From positions 1-60,105 of IMG/VR virus record IMGVR_UViG_3300034027_000006: DNA of 60,105 nt; one strand, given 5' to 3'. The DNA is from a virus (taxonomy: Duplodnaviria > Caudoviricetes). Both the position numbers and the translations under genes were made by a program. Positions 15,507 to 60,105 of this stretch are shown here, one piece after another. The notes beneath the pieces were generated by a model. It was given only the letters and a program-made list of their open reading frames with translations. It did no database searches and was not told where the DNA came from. Positions within the stretch are counted from its first letter, which is position 1. The number at the start of each line of letters is the position of its first letter.

Positions 15507-15603
15507 AAAGCCGATCTACTTTAAATCTGGCGTATAATGCGAGGAAGCATCGGCGGTATCAGTCGCCGATGCTTCTAGTCTAACCCTTGAGAGGTAATGT
15601 TTT

Positions 15604-16556: not shown

Positions 16557-16578
16557 ATTTAACGGTAACGACGAGTAG

Positions 16579-16600
16579 AACCCGCGAGAGCGGGTTTTTT
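16579..16600. terminator. Intrinsic terminator between convergent genes
   Basis: AACCCGC-GAGA-GCGGGTT followed by T run. Confidence 0.8.
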
Positions 16601-16605
16601 ATTGC

Positions 16606-27301: not shown

Positions 27302-27437
27302 ATAGGGGCCATAAGGATCGATTGTGGTGTTTGAGCGCTTGCTCTGTCCTTTTGGCCTCTCGCCTATCCAGTCACTAGCTGGCACGTTCTGCGATCTCAA
27401 GTCTCGGACTTTGTGCAGACTTTTAAAGCCTAACACC

Positions 27438-33677: not shown

Positions 33678-35906
33678 CTACAGTATTGCCATAAGCTGAC
33701 GAGCTAGATCCGCTGCTGACTTGATATTTTTTAGGGTTTTTTTCTTACCCCTCATCACTATGTCGATGTTATCCTGCTTTAAGTGAATAACCCCGTCGAT
33801 CGCAGCATCGATCGCCCCGTATTGCAGCCAAGTAGCGAAAACAGGGTTTTTCTGGCCTAGTCGGTGCGCCCTGTCTTCGGCCTGCTCGGTATCGCCCGGA
33901 GTCCAGGGCCGATCGACGAGGATAACATCGCTAGCCGCTGTTAAAGTCAACCCTACCCCGCCAGCCTTGATCGTGCCGACGATCGCTTTGTGCTGACCGC
34001 TCTGGAAGCGATCGCACATCGCTTGTCTGTTTTCTGGCGGTGTCTCACCTGTCAGTAACTCAGCCCCCAACGCCTCGGCTATAAGCTTCGCGGACTCCAA
34101 AAACTCAGTGAAGACAATCACCTGCGAGCCGGCCTCTATTGTCTCACTGGCTAATTCTACCGCCGCCTCTGCCTTTGCCAACGATCCGACACGTCGCAAA
34201 ATATTAAGCGTCGCCAATGCTTCAGAGTTTGGATCTACTAATCCATCCTTAGCCCGCTGTCTGTAGTCTGCTACCAGGCGATCGATCTCTTGCTTGTAAT
34301 TCCTCGCGGTCGCATCGCTTATTTCTGCTTCTTTAAACAGGCGAGTTTTTTCGGGCAATTCTGGCAAGCAATCCGCTTTAGTTCGCTGCAAAATAGCGTC
34401 TTTAGTTGCCTCTGCTAACTCATTCAAGTGTGCAGATCCGCTAACATCCCAAACACTCCTACCCGCTTTGTTTATAGTTCGATATCCAGCATTACAAAAA
34501 TAACGCTCATAGTGCTTTTTATCGCGGGCTAGCGGGTGATCTACCGCTTCTAACAGTGGGAACAGATTAATCGGGCGACCATTCTTTATTGGCGTACCAG
34601 TCAAGGGCCAGACGGCGATACAGTTAGGATGCTTTGCTAGCTCTAAAAATGCGATTGTACACTGTGCCTTTGGGTTTTGGAACCTGTGGGCCTCATCTGC
34701 GATTAACAGATATTCGCGATGCTGTAGCGGTTTAAAAATCTTTTGGTGCGAGTTTGTTGTTATTTCAACCTCTACCTCTACAATTTCCGCAGTACGGGCC
34801 CACGTTTCTTGTAGACTGACCGGGGCAACAATCAAAACGGCACATCCTGTTTGTTGCTGTAACTTCTTAGCGGCTACTGCTGCGGTTAAGGTTTTGCCTA
34901 AACCCATCTGATCGGCGAGGATACCGCCTCGCATGATCCGACCTTTACCGTGAGAGATAAGCCACTCTACCCCGCGTTTTTGATACTCTCGCAAACTCCA
35001 GCCATTTTTGAACTGTCCATCTAGATCGCCAACTAGATCACCTATGGATTTAGCCACATCTAGCGCGGCCGCTTCTTGTTTGGCTATCTCTGCTAGGCGA
35101 TCGCTTTCAAGTGCTGCTATTACGCCAAAAATAGCCGGATCGTGATGATATGTCGGCTCTGGCCATTGCCTCAAAACCTTGCTGATTGTTTCGAGGTCAA
35201 GAGAAAACCGCCAGCTATCATCACCGCCGAGCTTTTTATAGTTAAAAGTCCCTTTGAATGTGCGAGCGATTAATTGAAATTGTCCGCTCACATCGTAAGG
35301 GGTAAACACTGCTAAGTTTTCGCCGCGTACTTCGATCCGACGCTGCGGAATACATAACTCGCCGTTTATGACTTTTTTAAATGTCACTTGATCGGGGTAG
35401 TGTTCGGCGATCTCTTCCCATTCTGGCAGGATTATGCCCGCTGGTTTTAGTTGCGTTCTTTTGTACTTCTGAAGCATTTTGTAAGCTCGCACCGCGTGAT
35501 TTTGCAACAGCGGATCGCCCGCTCGCAAGCGTTTAGCTAGCCATTTGCCAAAACCTGTATCGGAACCGTTAAAGCCTCGGCCGTCCTCTGTCTCGCAACC
35601 GTCGCACTGCGAGTCTAGATAAGCGATCGCTCGCTCAATAGTGCTAACAGCCTTGTTATTTGGTGCGACTTGCTCGACTTCGGTTATGGGTTTAAATTCT
35701 GCGATCGCCGCCGAGCCGATGACGCGCCGCAACCATGCCGACTTTTGCCCGCCGTCTGGTAAGTTTTCACCGATCAGCCGATGGATAGACTCTGGGAGTC
35801 TAACAGCAGTCATCGCCGAGGCTAAAGGTTCGTTAGGGCTGTCCACTGTCTTAAACTTGGTGTGCTGAATTTTTGCAGTCTGTGGGCGAGGCGTCTTGAG
35901 TGTCAT
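33678..35906 (-). CDS. SNF2-family helicase/ATPase with N-terminal ribbon-helix-helix
   Basis: LADQMGLGKT, DEAH, LTGTP, GVGLTL, QAEDRAHRLGQ. Confidence 0.92.
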   Translation of the reverse strand: MTLKTPRPQTAKIQHTKFKTVDSPNEPLASAMTAVRLPESIHRLIGENLPDGGQKSAWLRRVIGSAAIAEFKPITEVEQVAPNNKAVSTIERAIAYLDSQCDGCETEDGRGFNGSDTGFGKWLAKRLRAGDPLLQNHAVRAYKMLQKYKRTQLKPAGIILPEWEEIAEHYPDQVTFKKVINGELCIPQRRIEVRGENLAVFTPYDVSGQFQLIARTFKGTFNYKKLGGDDSWRFSLDLETISKVLRQWPEPTYHHDPAIFGVIAALESDRLAEIAKQEAAALDVAKSIGDLVGDLDGQFKNGWSLREYQKRGVEWLISHGKGRIMRGGILADQMGLGKTLTAAVAAKKLQQQTGCAVLIVAPVSLQETWARTAEIVEVEVEITTNSHQKIFKPLQHREYLLIADEAHRFQNPKAQCTIAFLELAKHPNCIAVWPLTGTPIKNGRPINLFPLLEAVDHPLARDKKHYERYFCNAGYRTINKAGRSVWDVSGSAHLNELAEATKDAILQRTKADCLPELPEKTRLFKEAEISDATARNYKQEIDRLVADYRQRAKDGLVDPNSEALATLNILRRVGSLAKAEAAVELASETIEAGSQVIVFTEFLESAKLIAEALGAELLTGETPPENRQAMCDRFQSGQHKAIVGTIKAGGVGLTLTAASDVILVDRPWTPGDTEQAEDRAHRLGQKNPVFATWLQYGAIDAAIDGVIHLKQDNIDIVMRGKKKTLKNIKSAADLARQLMAIL

Positions 35907-35994: not shown

Positions 35995-36999
35995 ATGCCA
36001 ATAACTCCGATCGCTAGCCCGACTTTTTTGATACCTCCAATGCTTGAGCGCGGGCAACTTGCAAGCGCTCCCACTTTTAACAATCTTGCTCAAATCGTAG
36101 TAAATAGCAACAGAAACACGGCTAACGCGATCGCCGCGCTCGAAACACAAATAGCCGCGCTCGAAAGTCGCATCGCCGCCGCCGCTCCAAACTCTCAGAC
36201 ACTGGTAAATAATGCAAATACTTTACGGTCTCAGGTTAACGCAGCGATCGGCAATAATGAAGGGAGCGACACAGCGCTCGATAGCATTCAAAATAACCTA
36301 ACAACCAACAATCAAAACGCAGATATTCAAGCGGCAAGAATATCACCTTTAAACAGCCTTATAGATGCTCTAACTATTGGCGGCGAGATCCAGGGTTTTT
36401 CTGATTTGTTAACACGTATTGCAGCCGCCACGCGAGTTAGCAGTCGCATCCTAGGAACCGATGCAAACAGTAATATAGTCTGGAGAACTCAAGGATCGGT
36501 GGGTTCAGGTGTCTTGTTAAAAATGGCTCTACTGAGTCGCAGATTGACAGATACAGGCAATGGCGGCGCGGCTACTTCCTTGCAAGCTTGGAATCCTATT
36601 TTATTAGACAATCCGACGTTTAATAATATTGGAATTATCTTTAATAACACCACTAAAGAATTCAACATCCCCGCTGGGGAATACATGGTTTTTGGGTTTA
36701 CTACAGGAGCGTCTAACGGTCTAAAATGTAGATTGCGAAACATAGGAAGCGGGGCGATCCTGCTAACCGGATCGCCAGCAAAAGGCACAACGGCGACGGC
36801 TGTTGTAGGCAGTGAACCTGTTAATTTTATAAGCAGAATGCTCGGCACTTTTTACACCAACACACTGATCACGGCTATTTTTGAGAGCTATTTCGACACT
36901 GCGGCCACCATCGCAGGAAACACTCGCAGCGCATCACCTAACCTATCAGGATACACCCCGCAACAATCAGCCCTCGCCTTTATCCGAGTTATTTACTAA
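35995..36999 (+). CDS. Tail fibre-like protein (paralogue 2)
   Basis: Coiled coil plus IPAGEY beta head, similar to the C-terminal part of 31527-33092. Confidence 0.65.
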   Translation: MPITPIASPTFLIPPMLERGQLASAPTFNNLAQIVVNSNRNTANAIAALETQIAALESRIAAAAPNSQTLVNNANTLRSQVNAAIGNNEGSDTALDSIQNNLTTNNQNADIQAARISPLNSLIDALTIGGEIQGFSDLLTRIAAATRVSSRILGTDANSNIVWRTQGSVGSGVLLKMALLSRRLTDTGNGGAATSLQAWNPILLDNPTFNNIGIIFNNTTKEFNIPAGEYMVFGFTTGASNGLKCRLRNIGSGAILLTGSPAKGTTATAVVGSEPVNFISRMLGTFYTNTLITAIFESYFDTAATIAGNTRSASPNLSGYTPQQSALAFIRVIY

Positions 37000-37377
37000 C
37001 TTCTCAGTCAAAGTTACTTTAACTTGTAGACCTGCCAATTCATAAAGATAGATAGACGCACCAGCCGTACCGATAACGATTGCTTTCTCGATGTTATCCC
37101 TAAACATCCATTCAAGTACAATATGTGCCGGGATAAGACTAATATAACGACAAAAAACAGCCTCGCCTGTTACAGCGTCTGTTATGGCTCCTGGTTTGCA
37201 GTGCCTCAAATCGTATTTACTACAACGGCGAGCAATCGTTTGAGGCGATCGCCCGCTTAGCTTAATGTAGCCGCTTTGCGTTGTGTAAGCTTGCCAATTC
37301 TTGCGATTTAACACCACCTCGGAACCGCCGGGGTTATATAACACAAAATCATTCATATATAGCCTTAAACGCTGCAA
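36967..37377 (-). CDS. KilA-N/antirepressor-like DNA-binding protein
   Basis: AYTTQSGYIKLSG....TI.RRC. Confidence 0.55.
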   Translation of the reverse strand: MQRLRLYMNDFVLYNPGGSEVVLNRKNWQAYTTQSGYIKLSGRSPQTIARRCSKYDLRHCKPGAITDAVTGEAVFCRYISLIPAHIVLEWMFRDNIEKAIVIGTAGASIYLYELAGLQVKVTLTEKLVNNSDKGEG

Positions 37378-37726
37378 TTAATTGAGCTATCTCGTCGGCT
37401 AATTCTGGGTTATCCTTTTTTATCCAGATTGCGACATCATCCATAGATATTAACAACGTCCGAAAAACACCGCGCCCGGTGTCTAATTGTATAGATCGCA
37501 TCGCATCCGACCAGCAAAAGGGCTTAGCGGTAATTTTGGATGACTTGGGGTTTTGACGTTTTTTTGCTATCATTCTCCGGCATCTTTGACGGATTGTGGC
37601 GTTAGCCTTACCAGTTAGCCGACAATAGCCCGCTATTGTGATATATTGCTCGCCTGTTTCTTCATCAAAAGCGATCTCGATTTCATTCTGTTTAACGTAA
37701 ATTAGTTTACCCATTGATTGATCCAA
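37349..37726 (-). CDS. KilA-N/antirepressor-like DNA-binding protein (tandem paralogue)
   Basis: ETGEQYITIAGYCRLTG....TI.QRC...WI.KDNP.LA. Confidence 0.6.
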   Translation of the reverse strand: MDQSMGKLIYVKQNEIEIAFDEETGEQYITIAGYCRLTGKANATIRQRCRRMIAKKRQNPKSSKITAKPFCWSDAMRSIQLDTGRGVFRTLLISMDDVAIWIKKDNPELADEIAQLIAAFKAIYE

Positions 37727-37768: not shown

Positions 37769-38785
37769 ATGGCTCCTTTTATCCCTTCGGCTCGCCCTGC
37801 AAATGTCCGAAAACTCACAACGACAGACGAGCAGTTAGCCTCGGTCTTTAATCAAAGCTGGCAAGGTCTAATAGACTATTTGCAGTATAACGCCAACAAC
37901 GTAGCACAGCTAACACAACAGATAGCAAGCATTTCTGATAACGTCACTACAATAGAAAATAACTATAATTCACAGTTAACAGCGCTGGAAGATGCACAAT
38001 CAGCAGCCTCGCCTATACTTGCTACCTCAACGCTGCGTAACAGTAACGTTAACACCTTAAATAGTAGCAATAGTAGTGCCACATCGAAAATAGCAGCAGC
38101 CAATACAGCTTTAACTACTGCTAACACAAACCTAACTAGCGTACAGAATAACTCACAGCCTTTTGATTCTTTCTTAAACGCTATAGCTGCTTTGAATCGC
38201 CCTATTAATTCAATGTTTGGCACTAACCTTGCGGGGTCGGCTGTCCTGTTTTCATCTAGCGGTCAAAGCTTCACTATCGAGATGGCTAGCGCAAGATTAG
38301 ATAGAGCTTCGGCTGTTGATGGTGGTGGATTGGCTACGGGTGCATTTTCAACAGTGCCACTCAATACCGAAGGGTTTATAAATACTAGAAATCAATTCGG
38401 CTTAGAGGAAGTAAACCTAGACACGACCACAGGTGCGATCGTTGTGCCTTGTACGGGCGGCAATTGCCTCTACTATGTTTTTTCACTGTCGAGTTTTTGT
38501 GGTATTGGCGGCGGTAATTCCAAAATAACTTTAAACGGGGCAACAGTAGCCCTTGGCACTACAGTACAGTCAATTTCTGGCCGTTCAAATGCCGCCGAGG
38601 ATTTTAACCAGACTTCGGCGGCTTTTGGAGCGTTTGCGGTAACAACTAACTCGCCAGAATTGAGAATAGAGGCGATCGCACAGGCAGTACACCCTAATCA
38701 AGCAAGCGCGGCGCTCGGTCGATCTGTGGGCGGCGGTGTCGAGCGTTATTCTAGTCTTTTGCTGTTTCGGCGACGTATTCTATAG
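37769..38785 (+). CDS. Tail fibre-like protein (paralogue 3)
   Basis: Same architecture as 35995-36999. Confidence 0.65.
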   Translation: MAPFIPSARPANVRKLTTTDEQLASVFNQSWQGLIDYLQYNANNVAQLTQQIASISDNVTTIENNYNSQLTALEDAQSAASPILATSTLRNSNVNTLNSSNSSATSKIAAANTALTTANTNLTSVQNNSQPFDSFLNAIAALNRPINSMFGTNLAGSAVLFSSSGQSFTIEMASARLDRASAVDGGGLATGAFSTVPLNTEGFINTRNQFGLEEVNLDTTTGAIVVPCTGGNCLYYVFSLSSFCGIGGGNSKITLNGATVALGTTVQSISGRSNAAEDFNQTSAAFGAFAVTTNSPELRIEAIAQAVHPNQASAALGRSVGGGVERYSSLLLFRRRIL

Positions 38786-39023
38786 AGACATTAGATTTGC
38801 GACCTCTGGATGGGCCCGCGAGTGCTTTGTCGCGGGTTTTTGCTGCTTGGGCGAGTATAGCCTCGCACTCTCTGCGGTCAATGATCAAACTCTTGACATA
38901 TACCGCTATCCCAAGCTCGATCGCTGTTGCACCTAGCCCCGATTTTGAGATCTTTAGCTCAGCGCTAAGGGTTTCGAGGTATTGATCGACATGATCCGGT
39001 AGTGTGACTGATAACTGAGCCAT
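38751..39023 (-). CDS. Ribbon-helix-helix (CopG/Arc-like) regulator
   Basis: QLSVTLP...YLE.LS....ISKS......AI; divergent from the 39234 operon. Confidence 0.75.
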   Translation of the reverse strand: MAQLSVTLPDHVDQYLETLSAELKISKSGLGATAIELGIAVYVKSLIIDRRECEAILAQAAKTRDKALAGPSRGRKSNVSIEYVAETAKD

Positions 39024-39233
39024 AACGCGCCAACCTGAAAAAACTTTTAAACGTCTAGATTAACCATATCACGCATATCTCACGCATTTTACTAGACGGC
39101 ATTTTTGACAAAGTAAGTGAGATATACTTGACAAGCTTTTTAGGTTGCGGTAGATTCTTGATATACACCAAGTCCGAGACTTGGCCCGGACTTTAGTAAA
39201 ATCTGAGGATAACATCATAAAAAGCAGGACAAG

Positions 39234-39449
39234 ATGAGCGGAAACATCAAAACACCGGATCAGTTGAGAGTAGGGGACAGGATCGAGGTTATGCCCGGTT
39301 TGGCGATCGCCGAAGTGACAGGAATCAAACAAGGTCGGAACCCAAACGAGACTTACCTCGCGCTCAACGGTGAAACATTGAAAGAGGCGTTAAGCTGGCC
39401 CAATACAACCGAGTTCACAGTAGTAGAGGGTGAGGTTAACTACTTATGA
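39234..39449 (+). CDS. Small SH3/KOW-like protein
   Basis: QLRVGDRI motif; first gene of the rightward operon. Confidence 0.6.
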   Translation: MSGNIKTPDQLRVGDRIEVMPGLAIAEVTGIKQGRNPNETYLALNGETLKEALSWPNTTEFTVVEGEVNYL

Positions 39450-39700
39450 ATGTACACGAGCTAAGATGCACGATCACCGTTTTAACAGGGTTCAAGTTAG
39501 GGATTCATCATCTGATTGCCGCAGGGTTTGCAAAAGTCGAACAATCCGAGGAATTCAAGGCATCAGGAACAGAGAGCAGGCTCAGCAAAATCCACTTAGA
39601 GTTAGACCACTATATAAACGCACTGGAAAGCGCTTTATATAGACATGAACACGGCGACGAAGAAACACTAGAAACCATCCGAAACAAAAAGGACTTTTAA
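39446..39700 (+). CDS. Hypothetical protein
   Basis: ATGA coupling; resembles the N-terminus of the next ORF (EQ.E.F.A...L..H..Y.NAL). Confidence 0.65.
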   Translation: MNVHELRCTITVLTGFKLGIHHLIAAGFAKVEQSEEFKASGTESRLSKIHLELDHYINALESALYRHEHGDEETLETIRNKKDF

Positions 39701-39703
39701 CTA

Positions 39704-40111
39704 ATGAAACGAGAAAATTTAGAGCTAGCCACGTCAGTCATTAAAGGAGCCGCAGCAGCTCTCGACATGATTAGTAGTGAGGAGTTGGTTAACCTAGAAC
39801 AAACAGAACTTTTTCAAGCCTTGACTTCCCACAATTTAGCTCAACTACACTCTGATGTAAGCAGCTATGTAAACGCATTGAAACAAGTCAAGGAGATTAT
39901 GGACAGAAACGGTGGCGAGCTTCCTAGCGACGATCCAAGTATCAAGCAGCAGCTTATCGATCTAGGTATGATCGGTCAAGGTTCAGGCGGTGATGATGAC
40001 ATCGAAGCAACCCCACAGAGTCTCGGCGAATCGAAATCTAAAGCTTATGACAATACAGAGTTTGATCAAGCCCTAATCGGCGCTGTTGGTTTTAATCCTT
40101 TTGCATTATAA
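39704..40111 (+). CDS. Hypothetical protein
   Basis: Operonic ORF. Confidence 0.65.
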   Translation: MKRENLELATSVIKGAAAALDMISSEELVNLEQTELFQALTSHNLAQLHSDVSSYVNALKQVKEIMDRNGGELPSDDPSIKQQLIDLGMIGQGSGGDDDIEATPQSLGESKSKAYDNTEFDQALIGAVGFNPFAL

Positions 40112-40213
40112 AGAGCAATAGCCAGCCCCTCGGCTGGCAAGATTTAATCCCTATTAGGGATTGCCTGCAAGTCAGGCAATGTAAAAAGCATCTAATCATA
40201 GGAGTCTAAAAAT

Positions 40214-40579
40214 ATGCCAACTCTAGCCCCATATTCGGGGTCGGTTTGTGTTGCTTACGACACGCAAAGAACCACAGATCGAGAGCAATCCGCCTCGGTT
40301 TCGATCGATGGATGGATGACTCGCCAGCAAGCCGCAGATCGAGTCGGGACTACTCCTCGCAATCTTTCTCGCTGGCTAGAACTCTTAATGGTTCACTCTG
40401 AAAACTTTTTCGAGTTCGAGCATCCGGTCACTGGGGGAGTTAACGGCAGAGTAAAAATCGCCGAGCATCACATCCCAGAATTACTTGACATTAAAGAGCG
40501 GTTTGCTCGCACTCATAGCACCGAATTAGTCCGCCTCGAATTACGCGCCAAACATTCGACACAAACTCAGGAGTATTAA
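40214..40579 (+). CDS. MerR/excisionase-like HTH protein
   Basis: MTRQQAADRVGTTPRNLSRW; AGGAG RBS. Confidence 0.7.
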   Translation: MPTLAPYSGSVCVAYDTQRTTDREQSASVSIDGWMTRQQAADRVGTTPRNLSRWLELLMVHSENFFEFEHPVTGGVNGRVKIAEHHIPELLDIKERFARTHSTELVRLELRAKHSTQTQEY

Positions 40580-40581
40580 AC

Positions 40582-41121
40582 ATGAACGCCGTTAAAATGA
40601 CTGTTGCAGAAGCCGCTAAACAGCTTAATGTAGCCCCTAAGAAGCTCTTAAATGAGTTAGAACGCCGCACCGCTGACAAAGGTATTAAATGGAGCAATGA
40701 GAGCGTTTTGCCCGATGGTCTATTTGAGCAGTTGAGCAAACTTTCGAGCGAGTACGTCCAACAAACAACACCGCCCGAAGTAGCCGGATCTATGACTGTC
40801 GCAGAGGCTCGGGAGATTGTCGCAGAGTCAATCGAATATGCGTTTTTAGAAATTGGCGAAAGCAACCTCGGCGCATTTGAATATCTCGGACAATTGACAG
40901 CCGCTCGACAAATTCAGTCGCTACAAACTGGCAAGCGCTCGGCTTGGTCGGCGTACTATCAATCAGAAGACGCGCTCTTAAATGGCTGCTTAGATCAAGC
41001 CGAAAAACTGGCTAAGGATTTTTTGCCAGCCGCTCAAAAAGTGCAAGCCCTGAAGGTAGGAATGAGCCAAACATCGGCAGCGACGAAAAACCGTCTAGCG
41101 AATATGCCCAAGCTGTCTTAA
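40582..41121 (+). CDS. HTH-containing protein with a candidate -1 frameshift extension to 41324
   Basis: MTVAEAAKQLNV HTH; in-frame T TTT TTG at 41019-41025. Confidence 0.7.
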   Translation: MNAVKMTVAEAAKQLNVAPKKLLNELERRTADKGIKWSNESVLPDGLFEQLSKLSSEYVQQTTPPEVAGSMTVAEAREIVAESIEYAFLEIGESNLGAFEYLGQLTAARQIQSLQTGKRSAWSAYYQSEDALLNGCLDQAEKLAKDFLPAAQKVQALKVGMSQTSAATKNRLANMPKLS

Positions 41122-41301
41122 ATCGCCCGCTAGCGCCAATTGCTTTTAAGCACAGCGGCGCTAGTAACTTTAAGGCATATCAGGACGGTTTAAAACAGAT
41201 AGCTAAAACACTCTGGAGCAAGTACGAACAAACCGACGATCCAGAGTTCGAGAAACTTTCAAAATCCTACTCTAACGCCTATCTACAAGGAGAGATCGAT
41301 C

Positions 41302-41451
41302 ATGTTGACACCTTCACACGCTAGTTATTTGTTAAGTCAAAGCAGCAGCAACAAACCCCCCTTAATCTACCGGGACTGGCTAGCTTTGAAAGTATCAGTT
41401 ACATCTACCGTCAAGACTGTCTGGCAAGCGTTACACACAAAAATCATTTAA
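41302..41451 (+). CDS. 49-aa small protein (not in ORF track)
   Basis: AAGGAGAG RBS; MLTPSHASYLL...WQALHTKII*. Confidence 0.5.
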   Translation: MLTPSHASYLLSQSSSNKPPLIYRDWLALKVSVTSTVKTVWQALHTKII

Positions 41452-41469
41452 CTTTAGGAGTCTAAGATC

Positions 41470-42315
41470 ATGGGTAGAAAAAGTAAAGCTCAACTAGCAC
41501 TAGAAGCGATCCAGAAGCAAGTCAAAGCCGAGCCGGAATTTGGAGGCGATAACGCGCTCGAATATGTCGAGACAGAAACCTACCAACCAGTGAAAGACTC
41601 GCCCGAGACAAATCAATCTCAAAGCAGTATTGACGGATTAGACGACTGGCAACCAGGCGAAACATATCCGGCAGGGGCTGAATGGCCATTACAGCAAACC
41701 GGGTCGATCGGGATTTCCCAGAATGCAGGCGGCGGGCAAACAAATTTTGGCAGAAACTTAAGCGGGCCGGCAAGTACAACGACAGCCCTAGATATGTCAG
41801 CTTTGCCCCTGAATTACAAAGTAACAATACCTACGGGGATTTTTGACGGGCTTTTTAACATCTCAGATCCGGGTGATCCGGGTGCATTTAGTGCGGCTGG
41901 ACTTAAGCGGGTCACAGAGCAACAGCGCGAGGCAGATAAAACAACTTACCAGGAATTCAAAAATTACCTGTTAAATGTTACCGACGGCCTCGGCGTAATG
42001 GAAACCGGAATGAGTGCAGCAATTGCTGCGGCTAAACTAGGTCAATCGGCTGTTAAGTATGCAACCGAGCGCGAAAAAATTAACGGTCTTCAGTGGGGCT
42101 ATAAAGCAGAGCAAACTAAGACGTTACAAGCAGAGCAAGCTTATAACGGCGAAGTTATAAAGCTTAACCACAGCACACAGAAAAACATGGTACAGGCGGC
42201 AATCTACAACACTCAAATCGGCAGTTTACGCGCCGACCTTCAGAAAGAACAGGAAGCATTAAAGCTCAAACGTGCTGAGATTGCCAAATTGATAGACGCC
42301 CCGGTTACTTACTAA
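41470..42315 (+). CDS. Coiled-coil protein
   Basis: AGGAG RBS; disordered N-terminus and long helical C-terminus. Confidence 0.7.
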   Translation: MGRKSKAQLALEAIQKQVKAEPEFGGDNALEYVETETYQPVKDSPETNQSQSSIDGLDDWQPGETYPAGAEWPLQQTGSIGISQNAGGGQTNFGRNLSGPASTTTALDMSALPLNYKVTIPTGIFDGLFNISDPGDPGAFSAAGLKRVTEQQREADKTTYQEFKNYLLNVTDGLGVMETGMSAAIAAAKLGQSAVKYATEREKINGLQWGYKAEQTKTLQAEQAYNGEVIKLNHSTQKNMVQAAIYNTQIGSLRADLQKEQEALKLKRAEIAKLIDAPVTY

Positions 42316-42414
42316 CCCACCATATATAAGCAAAATTGGGGTGCATCTACCCCTATTTTTTTTAACACTTTACCAAGTCCGAGCCATGTCTCAGACTTTC
42401 TCGGAGAAAAACTT

Positions 42415-44817
42415 ATGAGCGCCAAAAATGAAATTGCAAAATTCGCATCAGCAATCGGATCGTTAGGTTTCGGCGGTGTTGGTTTAGCGGCACTTTGTGG
42501 GGCTATCCCGGCCGCCCCGCTCGCGGTAGGTGGCATAACCTTAGCGGCTGGTTTTTTGTCGGGTGCTAGCTTTGTCAACTGGGGAGCGCAAGACGCGATC
42601 GGATTGCTAGAGGATGAAAAGTTAGAGCTAGGAGCCGAGTTAGAAATTGCCAAAAACAAACTAACAATTCTAGAGCGTGATTTGCTAGAACAATTAGCCG
42701 AAGTCAAGGCAGAAAGAGACAGGCACATAGCAGAACTAGACAAAACAAAGCTAGAGATAAAAGACGAGATATTGAGACTGAAAAAGAGTATAAAATACTG
42801 GGAAGATGGCAAAAACCCTGATATTTTAGAAGTGCCACCAGTCAAGCAGCTAGTCGAAACACTCCGAAACAAGCTGGCTGAGAATACTAAAAAGTTAGAC
42901 GATACACTCGCAGCACTAGCGCATCAAAAACAAGTTAACGAGGGGCTAGTTGTAACCATAGACGAGCTAGAACAAGCTAACGAGGATTTAGACGCTCAAT
43001 TAGCAAATACACTGCTAGAACTCGACAAACTAAAGCAAAATTTCAATTACAAATTAGAGGTCGAATTAAACCGAGCAATAGAACCTAGATTGAGCAAGGC
43101 AGTAGAGCGGGCTATCGGTAGGAAGCTTGCAGAAATAGCCAACCTAAAGAAGGCTATCGGAATGTTACAAAGCGAGTTAGATAATAAAGATGCGGTGATG
43201 CAACTATTAGAGCGAGAAAAGTTGCCAGAGATAGAAACCGCCTACAATAACGAGCTAAGCGCTCGCGATCAGGAATTGCTCAGACTATCAGGAGAAAACG
43301 ACGTTTTAAAACGCCAACTTGCAAAATATAACGAACCTCGGCATTTTGCCGGGTACACTTACCCCGATCAAGTGGGCAACCAAATTATCGATCACTTCTT
43401 TAACCACGGTGTGATATTTGATGCACACTGTACTGAGCTAGTGATCGACGGCTACACCCTTAAATTCAAAATCGATCGCAACCCAGATCAGACAAAACTG
43501 TCAACAGAGGAAATAAACAAACTCACAAATCAAGTCGGCTTAATGGGTTTATCTCGGAAGGAATTAAAATTTGAGTTGCACCCTAATGACTTTCTGGTTA
43601 GTGTCAATATTTACCCTGGTAGCTTTGAAAGTCCGAGACTTGGGGCGGACTTGGCCGCCAAGTCCGATCGAAATTTATCGACTGTAAACGGCAATTTTTC
43701 GGATGGATTGATCAATCTCAAGACGGCTAAAACTCCGACAGATAAAGGCAAGTCCGCCCCAAGTCCGATCGACAAACATAGACAAAGATTTGTAGATCTC
43801 GACTGCTACCCGAAGGATCAATTTGCAGAGCTAGTTAAGCGCCGAATAAAAGAACGCGCCCGGATAATTGCTGGTAGTGCTGGCGGCAAGTCGCCACTAA
43901 ACGAGATTTATTCGCTAACGACTGCGAAAATGTTCGCACAGACTCGAAAGAACGGGGCGATCGTATACTTTCCGAATCCTTTGCCGGGTGGCGATAAAGA
44001 CTGGTTTACAACACCCTCAATCGTCAAATCTGGCGAGGGTGGAGTCGCAAAAGTAGCCGAGTGTCTAGAGGAATTGCTAGAGGAAGTTTTGAGGCGATGC
44101 GCTAGCGGGGCCGAGTCCGACGAGTGGCCTTACATCCATCTGATGCTAGATGAAGGTAACATGATAGCCCGTTATTTCAGTCGGCAAGGGGAGCTAATCA
44201 AGCAAATATTGCAGGCTGGATCTCACGCCTATGTCGGGTTAGGAGCAAGCGGCCAAGGGCTAGAGATCACAGGCTGGAGCGGTGGCGGCGGATCACCTGC
44301 TAACACGCTGCGGGCTAACGATTTTATAGTCGGCGCGGCTCATATCCTGATAGACGAGGCGGCGCTGTTGTGGATCAACAAATATTTTGTCGGTCAGGAG
44401 CGCGAAGACCTTCGCGAGCAGTATTACAAGCTCGCCGAACTCTGCGAAGAGTTAAACGAGCAAGAAGGGCTAATAAACAAGCCAAATACGGGCGACGAGC
44501 GCATAGTCAGTCCTAACGCCTACCGATTCGCTTTCTGCACAGTCCCAGCGGGCAAACCCTTCTTTTTTCAGATCCCAAGTTACGGATCGGTGTCTATCGA
44601 GGGTTTAAGTTTTCCAGAAGGGGCCGAAGTAACATCGCGTTACCACAACGCCGAACAGGATAAGATCGACCAAAATAGCGATCGCACAACTGACGCGGTT
44701 TTTGCCGCGTGTCCGTACTGCTTATCGACTAACTTTAAACAAATGGAACCCTACAAGGACGGGCGATCTAGATACGTTTGCGGATCTCGCAAATGTCGCA
44801 AAAAGTTTAGCCTCTAG
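42415..44817 (+). CDS. Membrane-anchored coiled-coil FtsK/HerA-like P-loop ATPase with C-terminal Zn ribbon
   Basis: Two N-terminal TM segments, ~250-aa coiled coil, IIAGSAGGKS (Walker A variant), LMLDEG (Walker B), SGQ, CPYC...C....C. Confidence 0.6.
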   Translation: MSAKNEIAKFASAIGSLGFGGVGLAALCGAIPAAPLAVGGITLAAGFLSGASFVNWGAQDAIGLLEDEKLELGAELEIAKNKLTILERDLLEQLAEVKAERDRHIAELDKTKLEIKDEILRLKKSIKYWEDGKNPDILEVPPVKQLVETLRNKLAENTKKLDDTLAALAHQKQVNEGLVVTIDELEQANEDLDAQLANTLLELDKLKQNFNYKLEVELNRAIEPRLSKAVERAIGRKLAEIANLKKAIGMLQSELDNKDAVMQLLEREKLPEIETAYNNELSARDQELLRLSGENDVLKRQLAKYNEPRHFAGYTYPDQVGNQIIDHFFNHGVIFDAHCTELVIDGYTLKFKIDRNPDQTKLSTEEINKLTNQVGLMGLSRKELKFELHPNDFLVSVNIYPGSFESPRLGADLAAKSDRNLSTVNGNFSDGLINLKTAKTPTDKGKSAPSPIDKHRQRFVDLDCYPKDQFAELVKRRIKERARIIAGSAGGKSPLNEIYSLTTAKMFAQTRKNGAIVYFPNPLPGGDKDWFTTPSIVKSGEGGVAKVAECLEELLEEVLRRCASGAESDEWPYIHLMLDEGNMIARYFSRQGELIKQILQAGSHAYVGLGASGQGLEITGWSGGGGSPANTLRANDFIVGAAHILIDEAALLWINKYFVGQEREDLREQYYKLAELCEELNEQEGLINKPNTGDERIVSPNAYRFAFCTVPAGKPFFFQIPSYGSVSIEGLSFPEGAEVTSRYHNAEQDKIDQNSDRTTDAVFAACPYCLSTNFKQMEPYKDGRSRYVCGSRKCRKKFSL

Positions 44818-44875: not shown

Positions 44876-45044
44876 GTACACACTTTTAACAAACCAACAC
44901 CCCGCAAGGCTTACAGCAATTTTCGATCTTATCCTGCCACACTTTTTCTGGCTTCTTTTTTTTACCGCGCCATTGTAAAGAAATTGTTACAAATCAAGAA
45001 AAACGTTGTAAGCCTTGCGGGGTGTTGGTTTAGCCAGTGTGTAC
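44876..45044. repeat. Long inverted repeat
   Basis: Perfect 25-bp arms at 44891-44915 and 45007-45031; outer 9-bp arms at 44876-44884 and 45036-45044. Confidence 0.9.
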
Positions 45045-45141
45045 ACTGTGTATCTAAGGGTTTGAAAATGGCCAAAAACCACGCCAAAAAACCGCGCCAA
45101 GTGTACACAAAACCCCAAAAAACCACTAAAAACGTTGAATT

Positions 45142-46083
45142 ATGAAAATAAAACCCCGATCGATACTCTCACGCTTGACACAGTTTTTGCCATTGCCGCC
45201 ACAGCCTCGGCTTATGATTTTTAACTGTGAAATAAAGCGCGCCCCAGAATACCCCGAGGACTGGCAAGACTACGAACTGCTAGGCTTAAGCGTGTTTGGC
45301 TGCTACTGCGACTGGCTACCAGAGAACCAACGCTGGCAAGTCTTTACAGAGGACAATAATTTTGCGGGTGTTCAGGACTTGATAGATCAAGCTGAGATAA
45401 TCGTCGGATTTAACTCTCTATCCTTTGACGATCGCCTCTGCAAGGCTCACGGCATTAATATCGCGACAACATTCGACTTAATGGTAGAGGTACGCCGAGC
45501 GGTCGGTCAGCCTTTATCTGGCCCGTGTACACGAGGGTATAAACTGCTACATATAGCCGAAAGCAACCTCGGAGCCAACTCGCCCGAAGTCCTACTAAAA
45601 GAAGCCATCCGTCCCGGTCAAGTCCCGGACTTGTGGCGATTAGGTGAACGAGAAAAAGTTATCACCTATTGCCTAAACGAGGTTTTCTTGACGTTTGAAT
45701 TGTATAAGCGCCGCCGAAAATTAGTCGATCCAGTAAGGCATAATCGATTACTGCACTGCGATCCAGATAGTCGAGACTGGCGAGAAATAAGGGCGACTAT
45801 CAAGTGGTTTTTAGCCGAGCAAGTCTTTAGCTTTAGTGTAGATAGGGTAAGCCATTGGCGGGGTGTGGACATCTTAAAAGCGCGTTTAGCCATAGCAGAA
45901 AGCGCCGTTTTAACCTTCCCTGTCTGGATTTTCCCTCAGCACGACTGGCGAGTATATACGGGATTACCCTTTAGACTCACTTCGCAGAATTCTGTCAAAA
46001 CTGATCGCCAGCGCGAGCTTGACGTGATTTATAAACGCCCAACAGACAGCGAGGGAGAGGACGCCGATCCTATTCCGTTTTAA
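45142..46083 (+). CDS. RNase H-like DEDD 3'-5' exonuclease-fold protein
   Basis: FNCEI, IVGFNSLSFD, YCLNEV motifs. Confidence 0.7.
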   Translation: MKIKPRSILSRLTQFLPLPPQPRLMIFNCEIKRAPEYPEDWQDYELLGLSVFGCYCDWLPENQRWQVFTEDNNFAGVQDLIDQAEIIVGFNSLSFDDRLCKAHGINIATTFDLMVEVRRAVGQPLSGPCTRGYKLLHIAESNLGANSPEVLLKEAIRPGQVPDLWRLGEREKVITYCLNEVFLTFELYKRRRKLVDPVRHNRLLHCDPDSRDWREIRATIKWFLAEQVFSFSVDRVSHWRGVDILKARLAIAESAVLTFPVWIFPQHDWRVYTGLPFRLTSQNSVKTDRQRELDVIYKRPTDSEGEDADPIPF

Positions 46084-46590: not shown

Positions 46591-46709
46591 GTCTCGGCTC
46601 GCTTTGTAAGGTATGATATCTTATCCTACAACATACGACAGCTTTAATCCGTCACCCTGATATCAGGGTAAACTATGGCATTTTACTAACCTATAACAAA
46701 CACTGATCG

Positions 46710-46818: not shown

Positions 46819-47646
46819 ATGTCTACATCTTACACAACCAGCGAACTTTACACCCTCTCGATCCGCGAACTGAAAGCAATCGCAGCAGCCAAACAAGTTA
46901 CACCCGCCGAGGATAAAGACAAGCGTTTTAAAGAGAATTGGATCGAGGCTATCCAATTTGCAGAGATCGGGGCAGTCCTGACCTCTGAATGGCTGGCTGA
47001 GGAAAGTCTCGCCGAAGTCTCGGACGTGACAGCAGCAGATGAGGCGACCGAGATTGAGCAAGACTTGCTGGCTAGTCTTAATCAGCTAGCCGACGCGGAA
47101 CAGGCAGCGATCCTCGAAAATCGGCAAGAAGATGCCCGCAAATATAGCGAGGCTTACGACGAAACACTCGCGCAATATGAAGCGGTGATCAATGCGTCGA
47201 TCGAGTCGCTGGCCAGCGAATCTATGGCTATCTGTGAGGCGGTGCGCGTGGATTGGCACGGCGAGAATATCGGCACAGTGTCGATCGACTACGGGGCAAC
47301 CGCTCGCGTGTTTCACGTCCTCGACTTGGTAACGACTAACCCAGTAATCAAGGTCATTACTAGCAACGGAACCGAGATCGATAGCCGTTGGCAATCTACT
47401 GCAAATAACCGCTATATCAAAGCGGTGCGCGAGGCTATACCAGCAAAAATCGCCGACATGGTAAATGCCATTTGCGAGCATTCTATGTCGAGGCACGGTC
47501 AGCACGTAGCCCCGCCCGATTACATTTATGCAGGCGGTGACGGTGAAGGCGAGCGACGGGGTGGCAACGGTAACGGCGACGATCGCGGGCGACTGACTAG
47601 CATAGTCACCTCTAGCGATTGGCCCTATGAGATCTACTTGTTTTAA
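46819..47646 (+). CDS. Early protein with Rho-N/HEH-like N-terminus
   Basis: LSIRELKAIA...K...IEAI. Confidence 0.65.
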   Translation: MSTSYTTSELYTLSIRELKAIAAAKQVTPAEDKDKRFKENWIEAIQFAEIGAVLTSEWLAEESLAEVSDVTAADEATEIEQDLLASLNQLADAEQAAILENRQEDARKYSEAYDETLAQYEAVINASIESLASESMAICEAVRVDWHGENIGTVSIDYGATARVFHVLDLVTTNPVIKVITSNGTEIDSRWQSTANNRYIKAVREAIPAKIADMVNAICEHSMSRHGQHVAPPDYIYAGGDGEGERRGGNGNGDDRGRLTSIVTSSDWPYEIYLF

Positions 47647-48931: not shown

Positions 48932-48958
48932 ATCTTATCCTGTATACTAGGATAAGAT
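48932..48958. promoter_or_regulatory. Palindromic operator upstream of the protelomerase gene
   Basis: ATCTTATCCT-7-AGGATAAGAT with perfect arms. Confidence 0.8.
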
Positions 48959-51900
48959 GTTTTTTATGACAGTTCAGATCATGGCAGCTAAATCGACAGA
49001 ACCCAAAAGACCATTGTTTAAGTCAGGCGATATAGTCTACTACCGCAACGGCAACAAATTTGAGCAGGCAACAGTAGATCAAGATCAGCCTTCACGCATG
49101 GCTAAAATTATCTGGATTTACTACAATCGCCCCGGCAATAGAAACCCGCATAAATTCAAGGCTTTTTTACAAGAGGTTTACACGGTCGCCGAGTATGAAG
49201 CCCTAAAAGATCAGCCAGTCGCAGCACTCTACAAAAAAGGCGACGCTCTGATATTGACTGAGGACGGCGAATCGTACCCGGTACGCTGCGAGCGAGATCA
49301 AATTTCAGCCAGTAGCGATCGGCTTTATGTAAGCGGTTATCACCTCGAAAACACTTGGGTAGATATCGCCAAGCTGTCACCAGCAGAGGAAGTCACACCA
49401 GCAGAGGAAGTCACACCAGCAGAGGAAGTCACACCAGCAGAGGAAGTAGCACCAGTCGCACCAGTCGCACCAGTCGCACCAGTCGCACAGACTAAAACAG
49501 TCAAGAAACTTTTTGAAAAAGGAGATCTAGCCTATTTAAAAACGCCTACAGATTACACCCCGGTGACTGTAACTATTAGCCAGCGACATAGCAAATCTAA
49601 AAAAATCGAGGTCTTATCCTTTGGTCGCAAGATCGACGTTCTAGTCAAAGACTTGATAACAGTTGCAAAATATCAAGAAATCACAGGCGATAATAGCCCT
49701 GTGCAATTAGACAAACCGCGCCGCTTATTTCAGGCGGGTGACTGGTGTTACTGGCAAGCTCGCCCCGGCAATGAACCCCACAACAAAAGGATCGTCAAAT
49801 GCGACCACAACCAGCACAAAAACGATCATATTGTCTGGGTTGTGGAACTTAAAGGCAATTGGCGCGATCGTTTTGGAGTCGATAGCAACTTACTCGGATT
49901 GATCACAGATCCGGCAAAGCTAGCCGAGCTAGACGCTAACGAGAAAGCGATCGAGGCAAGGGTAGACGAGATCAAGCGCAAGGAAGCAACAGACACAGAG
50001 GTAGCGCTCGCCGATGTTATTCCGATAGCAGAAACGGTCGCCGATGCTATCCCAGCAACCGAAACAGCGATCGCAGAGGTCGCAGCAGTTGCCGGCCCGC
50101 CTGAGTGCTACCCCGATGGCATCCGACGCGATAGCGCGATCGGGCGGATACGGGCTGAGGATGAGCGAGCCATTGCTGCAATGTTGAAAGCAGGCGATCG
50201 CCGTTGGTGGCGAGCAAGTGTCGGTAATTATCGATATGCTTGCGTAGAAAAAGACCAAAAAAGTCCAACCTCTAAAAAAGTTCAGATCTTGCACTGGCGC
50301 GACGATCGCCCCGGCGTTAGTCCCGAAGGCGTGGGCCCGGTTTGGGTAAACATCTCTGATCTACTGACAGAGGAGCAATATAAAGAACAAAAGCAGAATG
50401 AGGCTAAAAAGCGCGTTGAAGCTTTGTTACCTGCACGGGATGAGGAAACACCAGCCGAAAGCGTGACGGTAGCCTTCACGTCGCCGGAATCGTTCGCTAA
50501 AGTAATGTTGAAGGCTGGCAACAACGCCGGAGAGATTAGCCGACTGTGCGATCGATTGCTAGCCCTGCCAATGTTCGATAGAACTCGGATTAACGAGCGC
50601 ACAAAATTAACTCGCCTCGGCCCTTATAGTCGAGCGCTAGAGGCAGAGATCAAGCAATCAGGGTTTGAGCTTATTCGCCATACAAACGCGGTAGTCTGGC
50701 GAAGAAAAGACGGCAGCGAGCAGTTACGTCACTATTACTACAAGCTCGTCGGGCTGATGGATTATGACTGGGACGCTGACAACCAAAAAGCAGCCGAGAA
50801 AGTAATCGCAAAGCTAGACAATCAAGTCGCAAATATTGACAGCGAGACTTACATTAAGACTGTTGAGACTCTGCTATGGTTTGACGATCCGATAAAAGTT
50901 TTAGGCGGTCTAGTTGGCGCTAGCGGTCGCCGGATTGTGGAACTAATAACGCTCGGAAATTTCACCGAGATCGAGAATCAAACCGATCGAGTAGTGTTTC
51001 ACGGGCAAGCTAAAAAGCGAGATAAACCGAGCGATCCTTACGAGATTTATTTGCTCGGATGCACCGCTAAAGACTTTTTAGCTAAGCTTGATTTTGTGCG
51101 CGACAGTGATGAGATGAAAGCAGCCTATGAGGGTCTAGACCCCGATAGCTCTGATTTCTTAAAGAGACTATCAGATCGGCTGAGGGTGCAAGTCAATCGC
51201 GAGGCGGTCGGCCCTGCGTTTGAATGGCTACAAAGTCGCGAGGGTGAGGAGCGAGCAACAACTAAAACACTAAGATCGACTTGGGCTGCTGTTGTCACTA
51301 GCAAGTATTGCCCGCCAGAAACTAACCCGCTGCTGTTTACTAGCCGACTGCTCGGACACTTTACGGGGTCAGTTGAAAGCATGGCAGACACGCTGAACTA
51401 TATCGACAGCGTGGCCGCCAAGTCCGACGAGCCAAACTTAGAAAAAGTCGAAGAGGTTCAAAGATGGCAGAGCATTGTAGACGGAATAATAGTCAAGCAA
51501 CCTAACGCGACATCAGGAGTCGAAACAGCGACAGCAGAGACAATCCAAGATCCAACAGAAACAGAAGAGGAAGCAACGCCAGCGCTCGATTATGTTCAAT
51601 TTGTAGAAGATGAAGCGGGCGATCGTCACAAGCGCGATTTTTACGAGTCGCCAGTCTGGGCATCTCTTGCGATGCTCGAATATGGCGGAATCACCGGGAC
51701 TGTCGGCGAGTGCTGCAACGGATACGGGGCAATAAGCCGAATATTTCAAAAGGCAAATTATGCAGTCTGGACTAATGATATTGACCCGGAGAAACCCGCA
51801 GATCACCATATAGACGCAACTGTCGAGGAATTGTGGGACAGCTTACCTGATGCTGACTGGATTATCTCAAATCCACCTTACGGGAAGCTATCAGCCCCCA

Positions 51901-54821: not shown

Positions 54822-54882
54822 AAAACCTTAAATCCCGATCAAAACACCAATTCGCAGATCATACACCCCCACAAAGTCCGAG

Positions 54883-55068
54883 TCAAGTCTCGGACTTGCT
54901 GGCATCCTCCTGAACACTGGAATAATGCAGCTTAGCATACTCGGCAATAAAAGCTTTTATCCGAGGGATTAATTCAACTGGTACGCGGATCGATTCCGTC
55001 TTGATACCGGGCCCGTATTTAGCTTTACCCGGTCTAAGATTCTTGATCGAGTTTTTGTGTACTGGCAT
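54883..55068 (-). CDS. Small ribbon-helix DNA-binding protein
   Basis: NS.KNL.P...KT.SIRVP.EL...I; GACTT array overlaps its 3' end. Confidence 0.6.
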   Translation of the reverse strand: MPVHKNSIKNLRPGKAKYGPGIKTESIRVPVELIPRIKAFIAEYAKLHYSSVQEDASKSET

Positions 55069-55214: not shown

Positions 55215-55251
55215 ATCTTGTCCTGTTTTTTGCAGGATAAGATGATATATT
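55215..55251 (+). promoter_or_regulatory. Palindromic operator plus -10
   Basis: ATCTTGTCCT-9-AGGATAAGAT-GATATATT. Confidence 0.75.
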
Positions 55252-59978: not shown

Positions 59979-60105
59979 GGGTTTTTTATTATGTAGAGGG
60001 AAGTGTGGGGCGGGGTGAGGATGTGGTGAGATTGGCTGGCGTTTAGTATGCGTTTAGGATGCGTTTGGGATGCGTTTAGCCAGTGCTTAGGGTGCGGTTG
60101 CTATG
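59979..60105. repeat. Right terminal inverted repeat (putative telomere arm)
   Basis: Exact reverse complement of 1-127. Confidence 0.97.

Follow-up and report, generated by a model that had tools for sequence, protein, structure and literature searches.

The stretch of DNA analyzed here (the window) is the whole of the 60,105-base virus record IMGVR_UViG_3300034027_000006, a complete-looking sequence with inverted terminal repeats for which CheckV estimates a completeness of 72%. We describe a run of genes between positions 39234 and 44817 that ends with a gene for an 800-amino-acid (aa) protein, which a sequence-only reading of the window had taken for a membrane-anchored FtsK/HerA-like ATPase at the end of an operon that might segregate the element or spread it from cell to cell. 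The seven open reading frames (ORFs) of this region are all present on the plus strand as had been stated, and they are listed with the other features of the window in Table 1.

The 800-aa protein has the parts that had been read from its translation, namely a membrane anchor, a coiled coil, a P-loop ATPase domain and a four-Cys ribbon. The hydrophobic anchor is retained in 40 of 42 full-length homologues, the predicted coiled coil is about 230 residues long, and the RecA-type β (ATPase) domain is preceded by a domain like the FtsK α domain. Between α and β lies a disordered linker of about 50 residues (405-451; low confidence at residues 105-148 of an AlphaFold model that begins at residue 301), and in the same model the β domain contains a helical insert. 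There is a single P-loop domain, with neither an FHA domain nor tandem ATPase domains. The Walker A motif had been called atypical (GSAGGKS), but this was a mis-registration: AGSAGGKS fits [AG]x4GK[ST] and is canonical. The homologue set consisted first of 13 proteins and then of 47 genomic and two viral loci; in the family alignment (32 sequences, residues 301-800) AGSxGGKSP (residues 486-494), D579-E580, GQG, AYRxA and the four Cys are invariant. Pfam Zn_ribbon families match the C-terminus of 14-18 of 32 members, and the IS1/IS1595 Zn domain matches that of the Calothrix homologue (E 5.8e-10).

Table 1. Features located in the window, in order of position.
Feature	Position	Strand	Remarks
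Left terminal repeat	27-67		3.7 tandem copies of an 11-nt unit; inverted copy at 60039-60079
CyRepA1-family plasmid replication protein, 1202 aa	5077-8685	-	286 bits vs cut-off 200, residues 441-1048
GACTT array, largest	5303-5337	+	3' end of Rep gene, upstream of terminase genes
GACTT array	27399-27422	+	
SNF2-type helicase	33678-35906	-	matches models of defence-system helicases (DpdE, ZorD, DrmD; best E 3e-39)
90-aa gene, divergent from operon	38751-39023	-	candidate ribbon-helix-helix regulator, from N-terminal sequence pattern only
Promoter-like site TTGACA-17-TAGATT	39128-39156	+	10/12 positions; promoter scan overall not above shuffles
GACTT array	39170-39193	+	one palindrome and one direct unit at 11-bp phase; between promoter-like site and first operon gene
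71-aa gene	39234-39449	+	first of five small genes (39234-41121) kept only in the two closest relatives, L048 and L049
84-aa gene	39446-39700	+	second of the five
135-aa gene	39704-40111	+	third of the five
121-aa gene	40214-40579	+	fourth of the five
179-aa gene	40582-41121	+	fifth of the five
281-aa partner gene ('c1')	41470-42315	+	short basic N-terminal helix, ~85 disordered residues, helix 150-276
Terminator-like hairpin with T8 tail	42338-42353	+	between 281-aa and 800-aa genes
GACTT array, degenerate	42375-42398	+	between terminator-like hairpin and ATPase start codon
Membrane-anchored FtsK-like ATPase, 800 aa	42415-44817	+	
Gly/Ala-rich hydrophobic anchor, residues 10-55	42442-42579	+	room for two membrane helices; KD19 up to 1.78
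Coiled coil, residues ~65-300	42607-43314	+	SMC matches at 69-310
FtsK-alpha-like domain, residues ~312-400	43348-43614	+	
Two GACTT arrays, opposite orientation	43629-43664, 43750-43765	+, -	in codons of the disordered linker of the ATPase
RecA-type beta (ATPase) domain, residues ~456-736	43780-44622	+	Walker A 43870-43893; Walker B (DE) 44149-44154
Four-Cys zinc ribbon, residues 766-794	44710-44796	+	Cys 766, 769, 789, 794
Large imperfect inverted repeat	44880-45050		34-nt arms, 91% complementary, 73-nt spacer
DnaQ-like exonuclease, 313 aa	45142-46083	+	syntenic in L048 and L049
GACTT palindrome	45620-45632	+	inside exonuclease gene
GACTT array	47004-47019	-	
Protelomerase (ResT/TelK catalytic domain) fused to methyltransferase-like region	48957-52661	+	PF16684, E 3e-23
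GACTT array	54874-54897	-	divergent intergenic region

What kind of motor is this ATPase? Its ATPase domain matched nothing in Pfam, PHROGs, NCBIfam, PADLOC or the PDB sequences, where only the coiled coil (SMC, LmuB, NudE) and the zinc ribbon were matched. The AlphaFold model of residues 301-800 has a mean pLDDT of 82.9, and in a Foldseek search of the PDB with it the E. coli and P. aeruginosa FtsK motors came first (E 4e-6 to 5e-5; 4e-6 to 1e-5 for 2ius, 6t8g and 6t8b), followed by TcpA and EccC/EssC. VIA-align gave Z values of 12.8-13.1 for TcpA and 12.9 for FtsK, covering model residues 12-436, which is α plus β (FtsK 332-718), then 11-12.4 for EssC/EccC (root mean square deviation (rmsd) 3.3-4 Å over ~200 residues), 10-11 for HerA and ~9 for RecA; a further structure search, independent of Foldseek, gave the identical ranking (TcpA/FtsK, EssC/EccC, HerA, RecA). 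When the family profile was aligned by hhalign with two cyanobacterial proteins that carry PF17854 and PF01580, the alignments spanned 261 columns at a probability of 66% (E 5.5e-5) and 252 columns at 77% (E 2.1e-5). The α domain (residues 315-400, aligned with the PF17854 region), both Walker motifs and the GQ/TQR motif came out in register; the controls gave 0.1% for the window's terminase and 12% for ParA, the latter over 34 columns around the P-loop. In the ESM Atlas cyanobacterial hypothetical clusters came first, and the neighbours that have names include FtsK/SpoIIIE clusters at 0.80, a result we take only as a lead. The modelled motor is therefore a RecA-type β domain with Walker A and B motifs nearest to FtsK-clade motors, with an α domain on its N-terminal side by both structure and hhalign and a zinc ribbon where FtsK has its C-terminal γ winged helix. 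Neither the deviant-Walker-A fold of ParA nor the actin-like fold of ParM is seen in it.

The model and the profiles together indicate that the 800-aa protein is a sequence-divergent member of a previously undescribed family in the FtsK clade of the FtsK-HerA superfamily; the FtsK/HerA-like fold that had been proposed is borne out, in that the C-terminal 500 residues model as an FtsK-type α+β motor and HerA ranks lower. In a profile search of 1.84 billion representatives, 652 family proteins passed E ≤ 1e-3, of which 274 also passed E ≤ 1e-10; most are 700-850 aa long and match over the C-terminal 450-480 residues. When 39 members from this search were scanned against Pfam none matched an FtsK family, and PF01580 was not among the 25 most-matched families for 32 members scanned at E ≤ 1. 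The family is thus large (652 representative clusters), unnamed and seen by no curated model, and our literature searches found no paper on it. A canonical FtsK homologue has so far been identified in cyanobacteria only in Anabaena, according to a review (PMC7766704), and in a study that treats cyanobacterial protelomerases (10.1101/2024.11.13.623437) 'FtsK' has 0 occurrences. Two family members used as queries found no match in 50,697 phage records. A structural match was seen in BFVD to A0A482MIE7 (Foldseek E 8e-6), an uncharacterised 712-aa protein of Nodularia phage vB_NspS-kac65v161 that has no tblastn match in the phage collection, and it may be a very distant family member, encoded by a cyanophage that is in culture. 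In five cyanobacterial genomes, clear PF01580 proteins were found only as fusions (in two of the genomes, L051 and L052) of a 3'-5' exonuclease and/or a PD-(D/E)XK nuclease with an FtsK α/motor, and these are not classical septal FtsK.

Among characterized motors, FtsK/SpoIIIE share with the window protein the order of parts (anchor, long spacer, α, RecA-type β with Walker A/B, C-terminal DNA-reading module), are the best or near-best structural match over α plus β, and have their motifs in register with it in the hhalign alignments. FtsK has four membrane helices, whereas the window protein has two hydrophobic helices at most; it differs further in its coiled-coil spacer, in the zinc ribbon in place of the γ winged helix, in the ~50 disordered residues between α and β and the helical insert in β, and in being encoded beside a protelomerase gene on a mobile element and not on a chromosome. 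TcpA of the Clostridium perfringens plasmid pCW3 (PDB 6o1x, 6o1z) is likewise a top structural match, and it too has an N-terminal anchor and is plasmid-borne, but it lacks the coiled coil and the zinc ribbon and acts in a multi-protein Tcp conjugation locus, none of which is seen in the window.

Which of the neighbouring genes belong with the ATPase? All ORFs of 49 loci and of the window were clustered (50 sources), and in 42 of these sources the ATPase gene is immediately preceded by a gene of the 281-aa family; six of the eight sources that lack it are contigs that end within ~1.2 kb upstream. The operon's coiled-coil protein, as the 281-aa product had been described, does model in AlphaFold2 as a single 127-residue helix (residues 150-276) after a disordered stretch. 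A complex prediction for it with residues 85-800 of the ATPase scored 0.00, which is evidence neither for nor against an interaction. The five smaller genes are confined to the two closest relatives. Because of the terminator-like hairpin between the 281-aa gene and the 800-aa gene, it is uncertain that the run forms a single operon. Of the module that had been proposed, the 281-aa/ATPase pair therefore stands and the rest does not: by its distribution, the conserved unit is this two-gene pair, not the whole 5.6-kb operon.

The surroundings of the pair are those of plasmid maintenance genes. A protelomerase gene is found inside the 10-kb flanks in 20 of the 50 sources. In Nostocales-type relatives an actin-like ParM-type gene (ALP_N, E 2e-7) and then a gene for an 80-90-aa protein follow the ATPase gene, and in Leptolyngbya-type relatives a ParA gene (AAA_31, E 4.5e-48) is nearby; since these ParM-like or ParA genes are right beside it, the module can be placed in the stability region. 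Genes for a CyRepA1-type Rep, a small integrase-like protein and a T5orf172/GIY-YIG-like protein recur as neighbours too, as do terminase genes. Of 401 cyanobacterial genomes sampled evenly, eight have the ATPase family, and in the five of these that were tested all six ATPase copies lie on one contig with a protelomerase gene, 2.6-8.3 kb from it. In five further genomes reached via the loci, three of ten copies share a contig with a protelomerase gene (14-32 kb away) and the rest are on other, mostly short contigs. In the related Brasilonema element L026 two CRISPR-like arrays (15187-15807 and 16494-16823; ~37-nt units, period 71-73 nt) are situated between the maintenance genes and the protelomerase gene.

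A search of PLSDB with a Nostoc family member found 17 plasmids, all from filamentous cyanobacteria (Nostoc 9, Leptolyngbya 3, and one each in Calothrix, Anabaena, Rivularia, Tolypothrix and Fischerella, the Fischerella match spanning the coiled coil only). Sixteen of the 17 are typed non-mobilizable, and at least 11 are also matched by one protelomerase query; pANACY.06, with an annotated protelomerase, is a twelfth. Among PLSDB protelomerase plasmids, the ATPase family matches none of five from unicellular or colonial genera and about 10 of 20 from filamentous ones, numbers that are small and confounded by lineage. Three small plasmids carry Rep, the pair and protelomerase with no annotated phage structural genes: Calothrix PCC 7716 p8 (16.4 kb, with ParM-like and 80-aa genes in addition), pANACY.06 (22.8 kb) and pNPM10 (21.9 kb, recorded as linear). 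The same Rep/pair/protelomerase set is on a 17,259-nt Scytonema contig (L024) whose ends are inverted 13-nt tandem repeats. Because the pair occurs on such small plasmids without annotated phage structural genes, its distribution assigns it to the plasmid backbone and not to virion production, and the two proteins probably serve plasmid upkeep or spread rather than virus particle assembly. The homologous operons that were to be sought on cyanobacterial plasmids thus exist there, in filamentous hosts, as the pair, but not as the whole operon.

The window itself combines both lifestyles. It has myovirus-type particle genes (large terminase, capsid, sheath, tube, tape measure and baseplate J/I by Pfam) together with a protelomerase gene, inverted terminal repeats and a plasmid Rep gene on one replicon, and HIP1-type words (GCGATCGC) are abundant in it, consistent with a cyanobacterial host. 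By this gene complement the element is a cyanobacterial phage-plasmid with predicted hairpin telomeres, which agrees with the linear prophage that had been assumed. In its tailed-phage genes, protelomerase, plasmid-type Rep and inverted terminal repeats it resembles the telomere phage-plasmids of the N15 type. N15 and its kin have SopAB/ParAB partition and are not known to have an FtsK-like gene, whereas no ParA or ParM is recognizable in the window: as had been noted for relaxase, type IV secretion system (T4SS) and ParA, no member of the relaxase, T4SS, ParA or ParM families is found among the 63 window ORF translations scanned against Pfam, and hidden Markov models built from the relatives' ParM-like and ParA clusters matched no window ORF. 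Five DNA metagenomes (biocrust, soil) are listed as containing the sequence, with no RNA dataset among those listed.

Arrays of GACTT had been noticed upstream of and inside the ATPase gene, and they are real. The window has 181 GACTT words against 124 ± 11 expected, an excess that is partly coding-strand bias, but the palindrome AAGTC-N3-GACTT occurs 6 times (0.09 expected) and direct GACTT-N6-GACTT units at 11-bp phase occur 8 times (0.07 expected). They are not special to the ATPase gene, however, but are scattered over the whole genome. The pair of arrays in the linker codons (43629-43765) contains a perfect 17-nt inverted repeat with a 95-nt spacer. In L049, whose ATPase is 46% identical, a different 11-bp unit, CCGGACATGAC, occurs 6 times (0.00 expected), and its sites fall at the corresponding places: ahead of the operon, 33-49 nt upstream of the ATPase start, within linker codons ~407-416 and inside the exonuclease gene. 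At each of these four places L048 has a similar motif, as single or paired sites, and a relative's arrays read CCGGACATGA. Because position is conserved while sequence has diverged, the dispersed 11-bp-phased arrays are, on this comparative evidence, genuine protein-binding sites. The orientation of the composite sites changes near 46 kb (the one at 43750 is also on the minus strand), with too few sites to call a polarity.

Which protein would read the arrays? The reader may be the zinc ribbon of the pump, in which case they would be loading or centromere-like sites, or it may be a small regulator, with the arrays as ordinary operators. The three 90-aa homologues (the one in the window and those at the equivalent place in L048 and L049) have identical alternate residues in the presumed N-terminal strand although the array motifs differ; the zinc-ribbon residues do differ between the window and L048/L049, a comparison confounded by relatedness. 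We give about an even chance to the arrays being operators of a phage regulator, either an immunity repressor or an activator, unconnected with the pump. Their spread over the whole genome recalls the plasmid prophage P1, which has many dispersed operators; the array at 39170-39193 lies between the TTGACA-17-TAGATT site and a AGGATAACAT motif and adjoins the small divergent gene, the array at 54874-54897 is in a divergent intergenic region and that at 5303-5337 upstream of terminase genes, and a palindrome plus direct units one helical turn apart would suit cooperative dimers. Operators would be less expected at four sites in coding regions, at positions conserved in L049 and including the pump linker, or with three of about nine sites in or beside the pump gene, and no regulator was identified in Pfam and PDB searches of the small proteins.

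What, then, might the pump do? Our favoured reading, tentative and held at somewhat below even chances, is that it is a membrane-tethered double-stranded DNA (dsDNA) translocase serving the plasmid state of hairpin-telomere replicons, where it would separate or place the sister replicons after replication. The pump would form a ring on the element's own dsDNA while tethered to the membrane and would, in the plasmid state, pull on or hold this DNA at the expense of ATP. Replication of a hairpin-ended replicon would first yield a joined inverted dimer, to be cut by the protelomerase, and separating and placing the sisters after replication would be the likeliest task. We favour a maintenance role because the module persists where partition genes differ between relatives, has Rep, Par and Tel genes as neighbours, and is retained on minimal plasmids. 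The simpler idea that the ATPase is the partition motor itself was downgraded, since relatives have ParM-like or ParA genes beside the same module, and from that gene content it is probably not simply such a motor.

Several observations weigh against this reading of the motor and its task. At the level of the fold, the window protein has no match at E ≤ 0.1 to PF01580 (the sequence signature of FtsK motors), PF17854 or PF09397, the Foldseek TM-scores are low (0.28-0.40) because the domain orientation differs, and the Z lead over HerA (10-11) is small, at 2-3 units. At the level of function, relatives with ParM or ParA already own a partition motor, and a 16-kb plasmid hardly needs clearance from the septum. 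To our knowledge the hairpin-telomere replicons of N15, Borrelia and Agrobacterium manage without an FtsK-like gene, so such a pump is not an intrinsic need of these replicons. The association with protelomerase may be inherited from a single ancestral plasmid lineage instead of being functional, and the array positions near promoter-like sites suit ordinary repressor operators.

By analogy with TraB, which moves double-stranded Streptomyces plasmids from cell to cell without relaxase or type IV secretion (as described in PMC4447253 and PMC3429521), the pump might instead move the dsDNA element between cells, across filament septa or between filaments, with no need of a relaxase, T4SS or virion. 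The motor type, membrane association and C-terminal DNA-reading module are similar, and the window protein shares with TraB a plasmid location, filament-forming multicellular hosts, short direct repeats beside and inside the pump gene (TraB clt sites are direct 8-bp repeats in the account of PMC4447253) and carriers without relaxase. The promoter-like site and then an array beside a divergent gene for a small candidate regulator recall the traR/traB kil-kor pairing outlined in PMC4447253. Filamentous hosts account for all 17 plasmids and for nearly all genomic loci with a named host, none of the five protelomerase plasmids from unicellular or colonial genera is among the ATPase-family matches, the 16 plasmids typed non-mobilizable have no other known transfer route, and plasmids of 16-22 kb devote ~10-14% of their length to the ATPase gene. 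We nevertheless think intercellular transfer unlikely. TraB reads clt by a C-terminal winged helix and the window protein has a zinc ribbon; besides the ATPase no further membrane protein is encoded in the operon, hence there is no Spd-like partner; a coiled coil of ~230 residues would keep the motor off the membrane; and the arrays are dispersed over the whole genome, not gathered in one clt locus. Descent of a single plasmid lineage could account for the filamentous restriction, the unicellular plasmids, which are large, have only distant protelomerases (25-29% identity), and the small plasmids retain a small-terminase-like helix-turn-helix (HTH) gene and could move as satellites of phage forms. 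We know of no report of DNA transfer between cyanobacterial cells. That the pair is a relaxase-free, TraB-like machine for dsDNA transfer between cells of filamentous cyanobacteria is, again by analogy, rather unlikely. A second bold possibility is that the pump is to the protelomerase what FtsK is to XerCD, and would bring it the telomere junction left fused in the replicated dimer so that it can be cut.

It is less probable again that the motor works in replication or DNA-end processing with Rep or with the adjacent DnaQ-like exonuclease, in the manner of HerA-NurA, tethering replicating DNA or feeding ends to the nuclease. In the window, L048 and L049 the ATPase gene is directly followed by the exonuclease gene, fusions to exonuclease and PD-(D/E)XK nuclease domains occur in two bona fide FtsK_SpoIIIE proteins of cyanobacteria, and many relatives have the replication gene on one side of the module and the telomere gene on the other; the arrays with an inverted repeat and an AT-richer spacer in the linker codons recall origins within initiator genes, as in lambda O and N15 repA. 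But ParM-like genes replace the exonuclease in most relatives, an end-resection machine would not be expected to carry a membrane anchor, no FtsK-clade motor is known to serve as a replicative helicase, and a dedicated CyRepA1-family Rep is present, so no initiator is missing. The presence of this Rep (5077-8685) led us to downgrade the ATPase as a replication initiator. As to HerA itself, it is of the same superfamily and the motor gene adjoins a nuclease gene in the window's subgroup, but that neighbour is not family-wide, HerA is soluble and scores lower than the FtsK clade, and its N-terminal barrel is not seen in the window protein.

Least probable of all, and in our view a poor candidate, is a motor that does not act on its own DNA but exports protein like EssC/EccC or excludes incoming DNA like HerA-based defence systems: EssC/EccC are membrane-anchored FtsK-clade ATPases whose single domains superpose tightest (Z 11-12.4, rmsd 3.3-4 Å), HerA defence complexes match at Z ~10 and the partner is a long helical protein, yet EssC/EccC have three or four tandem ATPase domains and protein cargo where the window protein has one ATPase plus α and zinc ribbon and no FHA, the α domain and the zinc ribbon suggest that DNA is the substrate, the sole PADLOC match is to the coiled coil (LmuB, E 7.5e-5), and the module is a constant backbone gene beside Rep, Par and Tel, not variable cargo.

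In filamentous cyanobacteria a whole class of replicons, the hairpin-ended plasmids and phage-plasmids, has the ATPase gene as a constant part of its backbone. If it is a maintenance pump it would be a new solution for keeping linear replicons; a transfer pump would make a poorly tractable group accessible to gene transfer and vector design, and if TraB-like it would give the phylum its first native route of a conjugation-like kind and would let a temperate phage colonise a filament independently of virions. The question is directly testable because homologues are on small plasmids of culture-collection strains; homologue-bearing strains include Anabaena cylindrica PCC 7122 (pANACY.06), Nostoc sp. 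N6 (pNPM10), Leptolyngbya boryana (plasmid of 44 kb) and Calothrix PCC 7716. The arrays, with conserved position and diverged sequence, are a ready handle on the DNA-recognition step.

The smaller genes of the operon had been described as paralogues and as including two HTH proteins. The 84-aa and 135-aa products do align, weakly (26% identity over 61 aa, E 7e-6), and the 71-aa product aligns with neither; the two candidate HTH proteins (121 and 179 aa) give only sub-threshold Pfam matches (HTH_Crp_2, E 0.024; IF2_N, E 0.026) and no PDB sequence match. The 90-aa protein encoded divergently from them has no Pfam or PDB match. The large inverted repeat in the 324-bp gap 3' of the ATPase gene contains three TGTACAC words and might act in cis, for example as an origin or centromere or as a structured RNA; the corresponding gap of L048 (12380-12680) has an array of ATGATCAT palindromes.

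Elsewhere in the window, the CyRepA1-family protein, the Rep of the replicon, has ~440 residues N-terminal of its CyRepA1 match, and its gene adjoins the terminase genes. The protelomerase is a 1234-aa fusion whose DNA-methyltransferase-like part is residues 887-1059, and its gene has in-frame 18-nt and 9-nt tandem repeats at 49378-49502. Two paralogues of ~335 aa with coiled-coil N-termini (35995-36999 and 37769-38785, plus strand) bracket two small minus-strand genes at 36967-37726, and both paralogue genes are 46-59% identical to equivalently placed genes in L048 and L049. A second dispersed motif, AGGATAASAT, has 18 sites against 0.2 expected (e.g., 39206-39215, 46618-46627, 48949-48958 and 55234-55243); its copies are mostly 25-40 nt before start codons and oriented with the gene, and it looks like a phage promoter or translation-start element.

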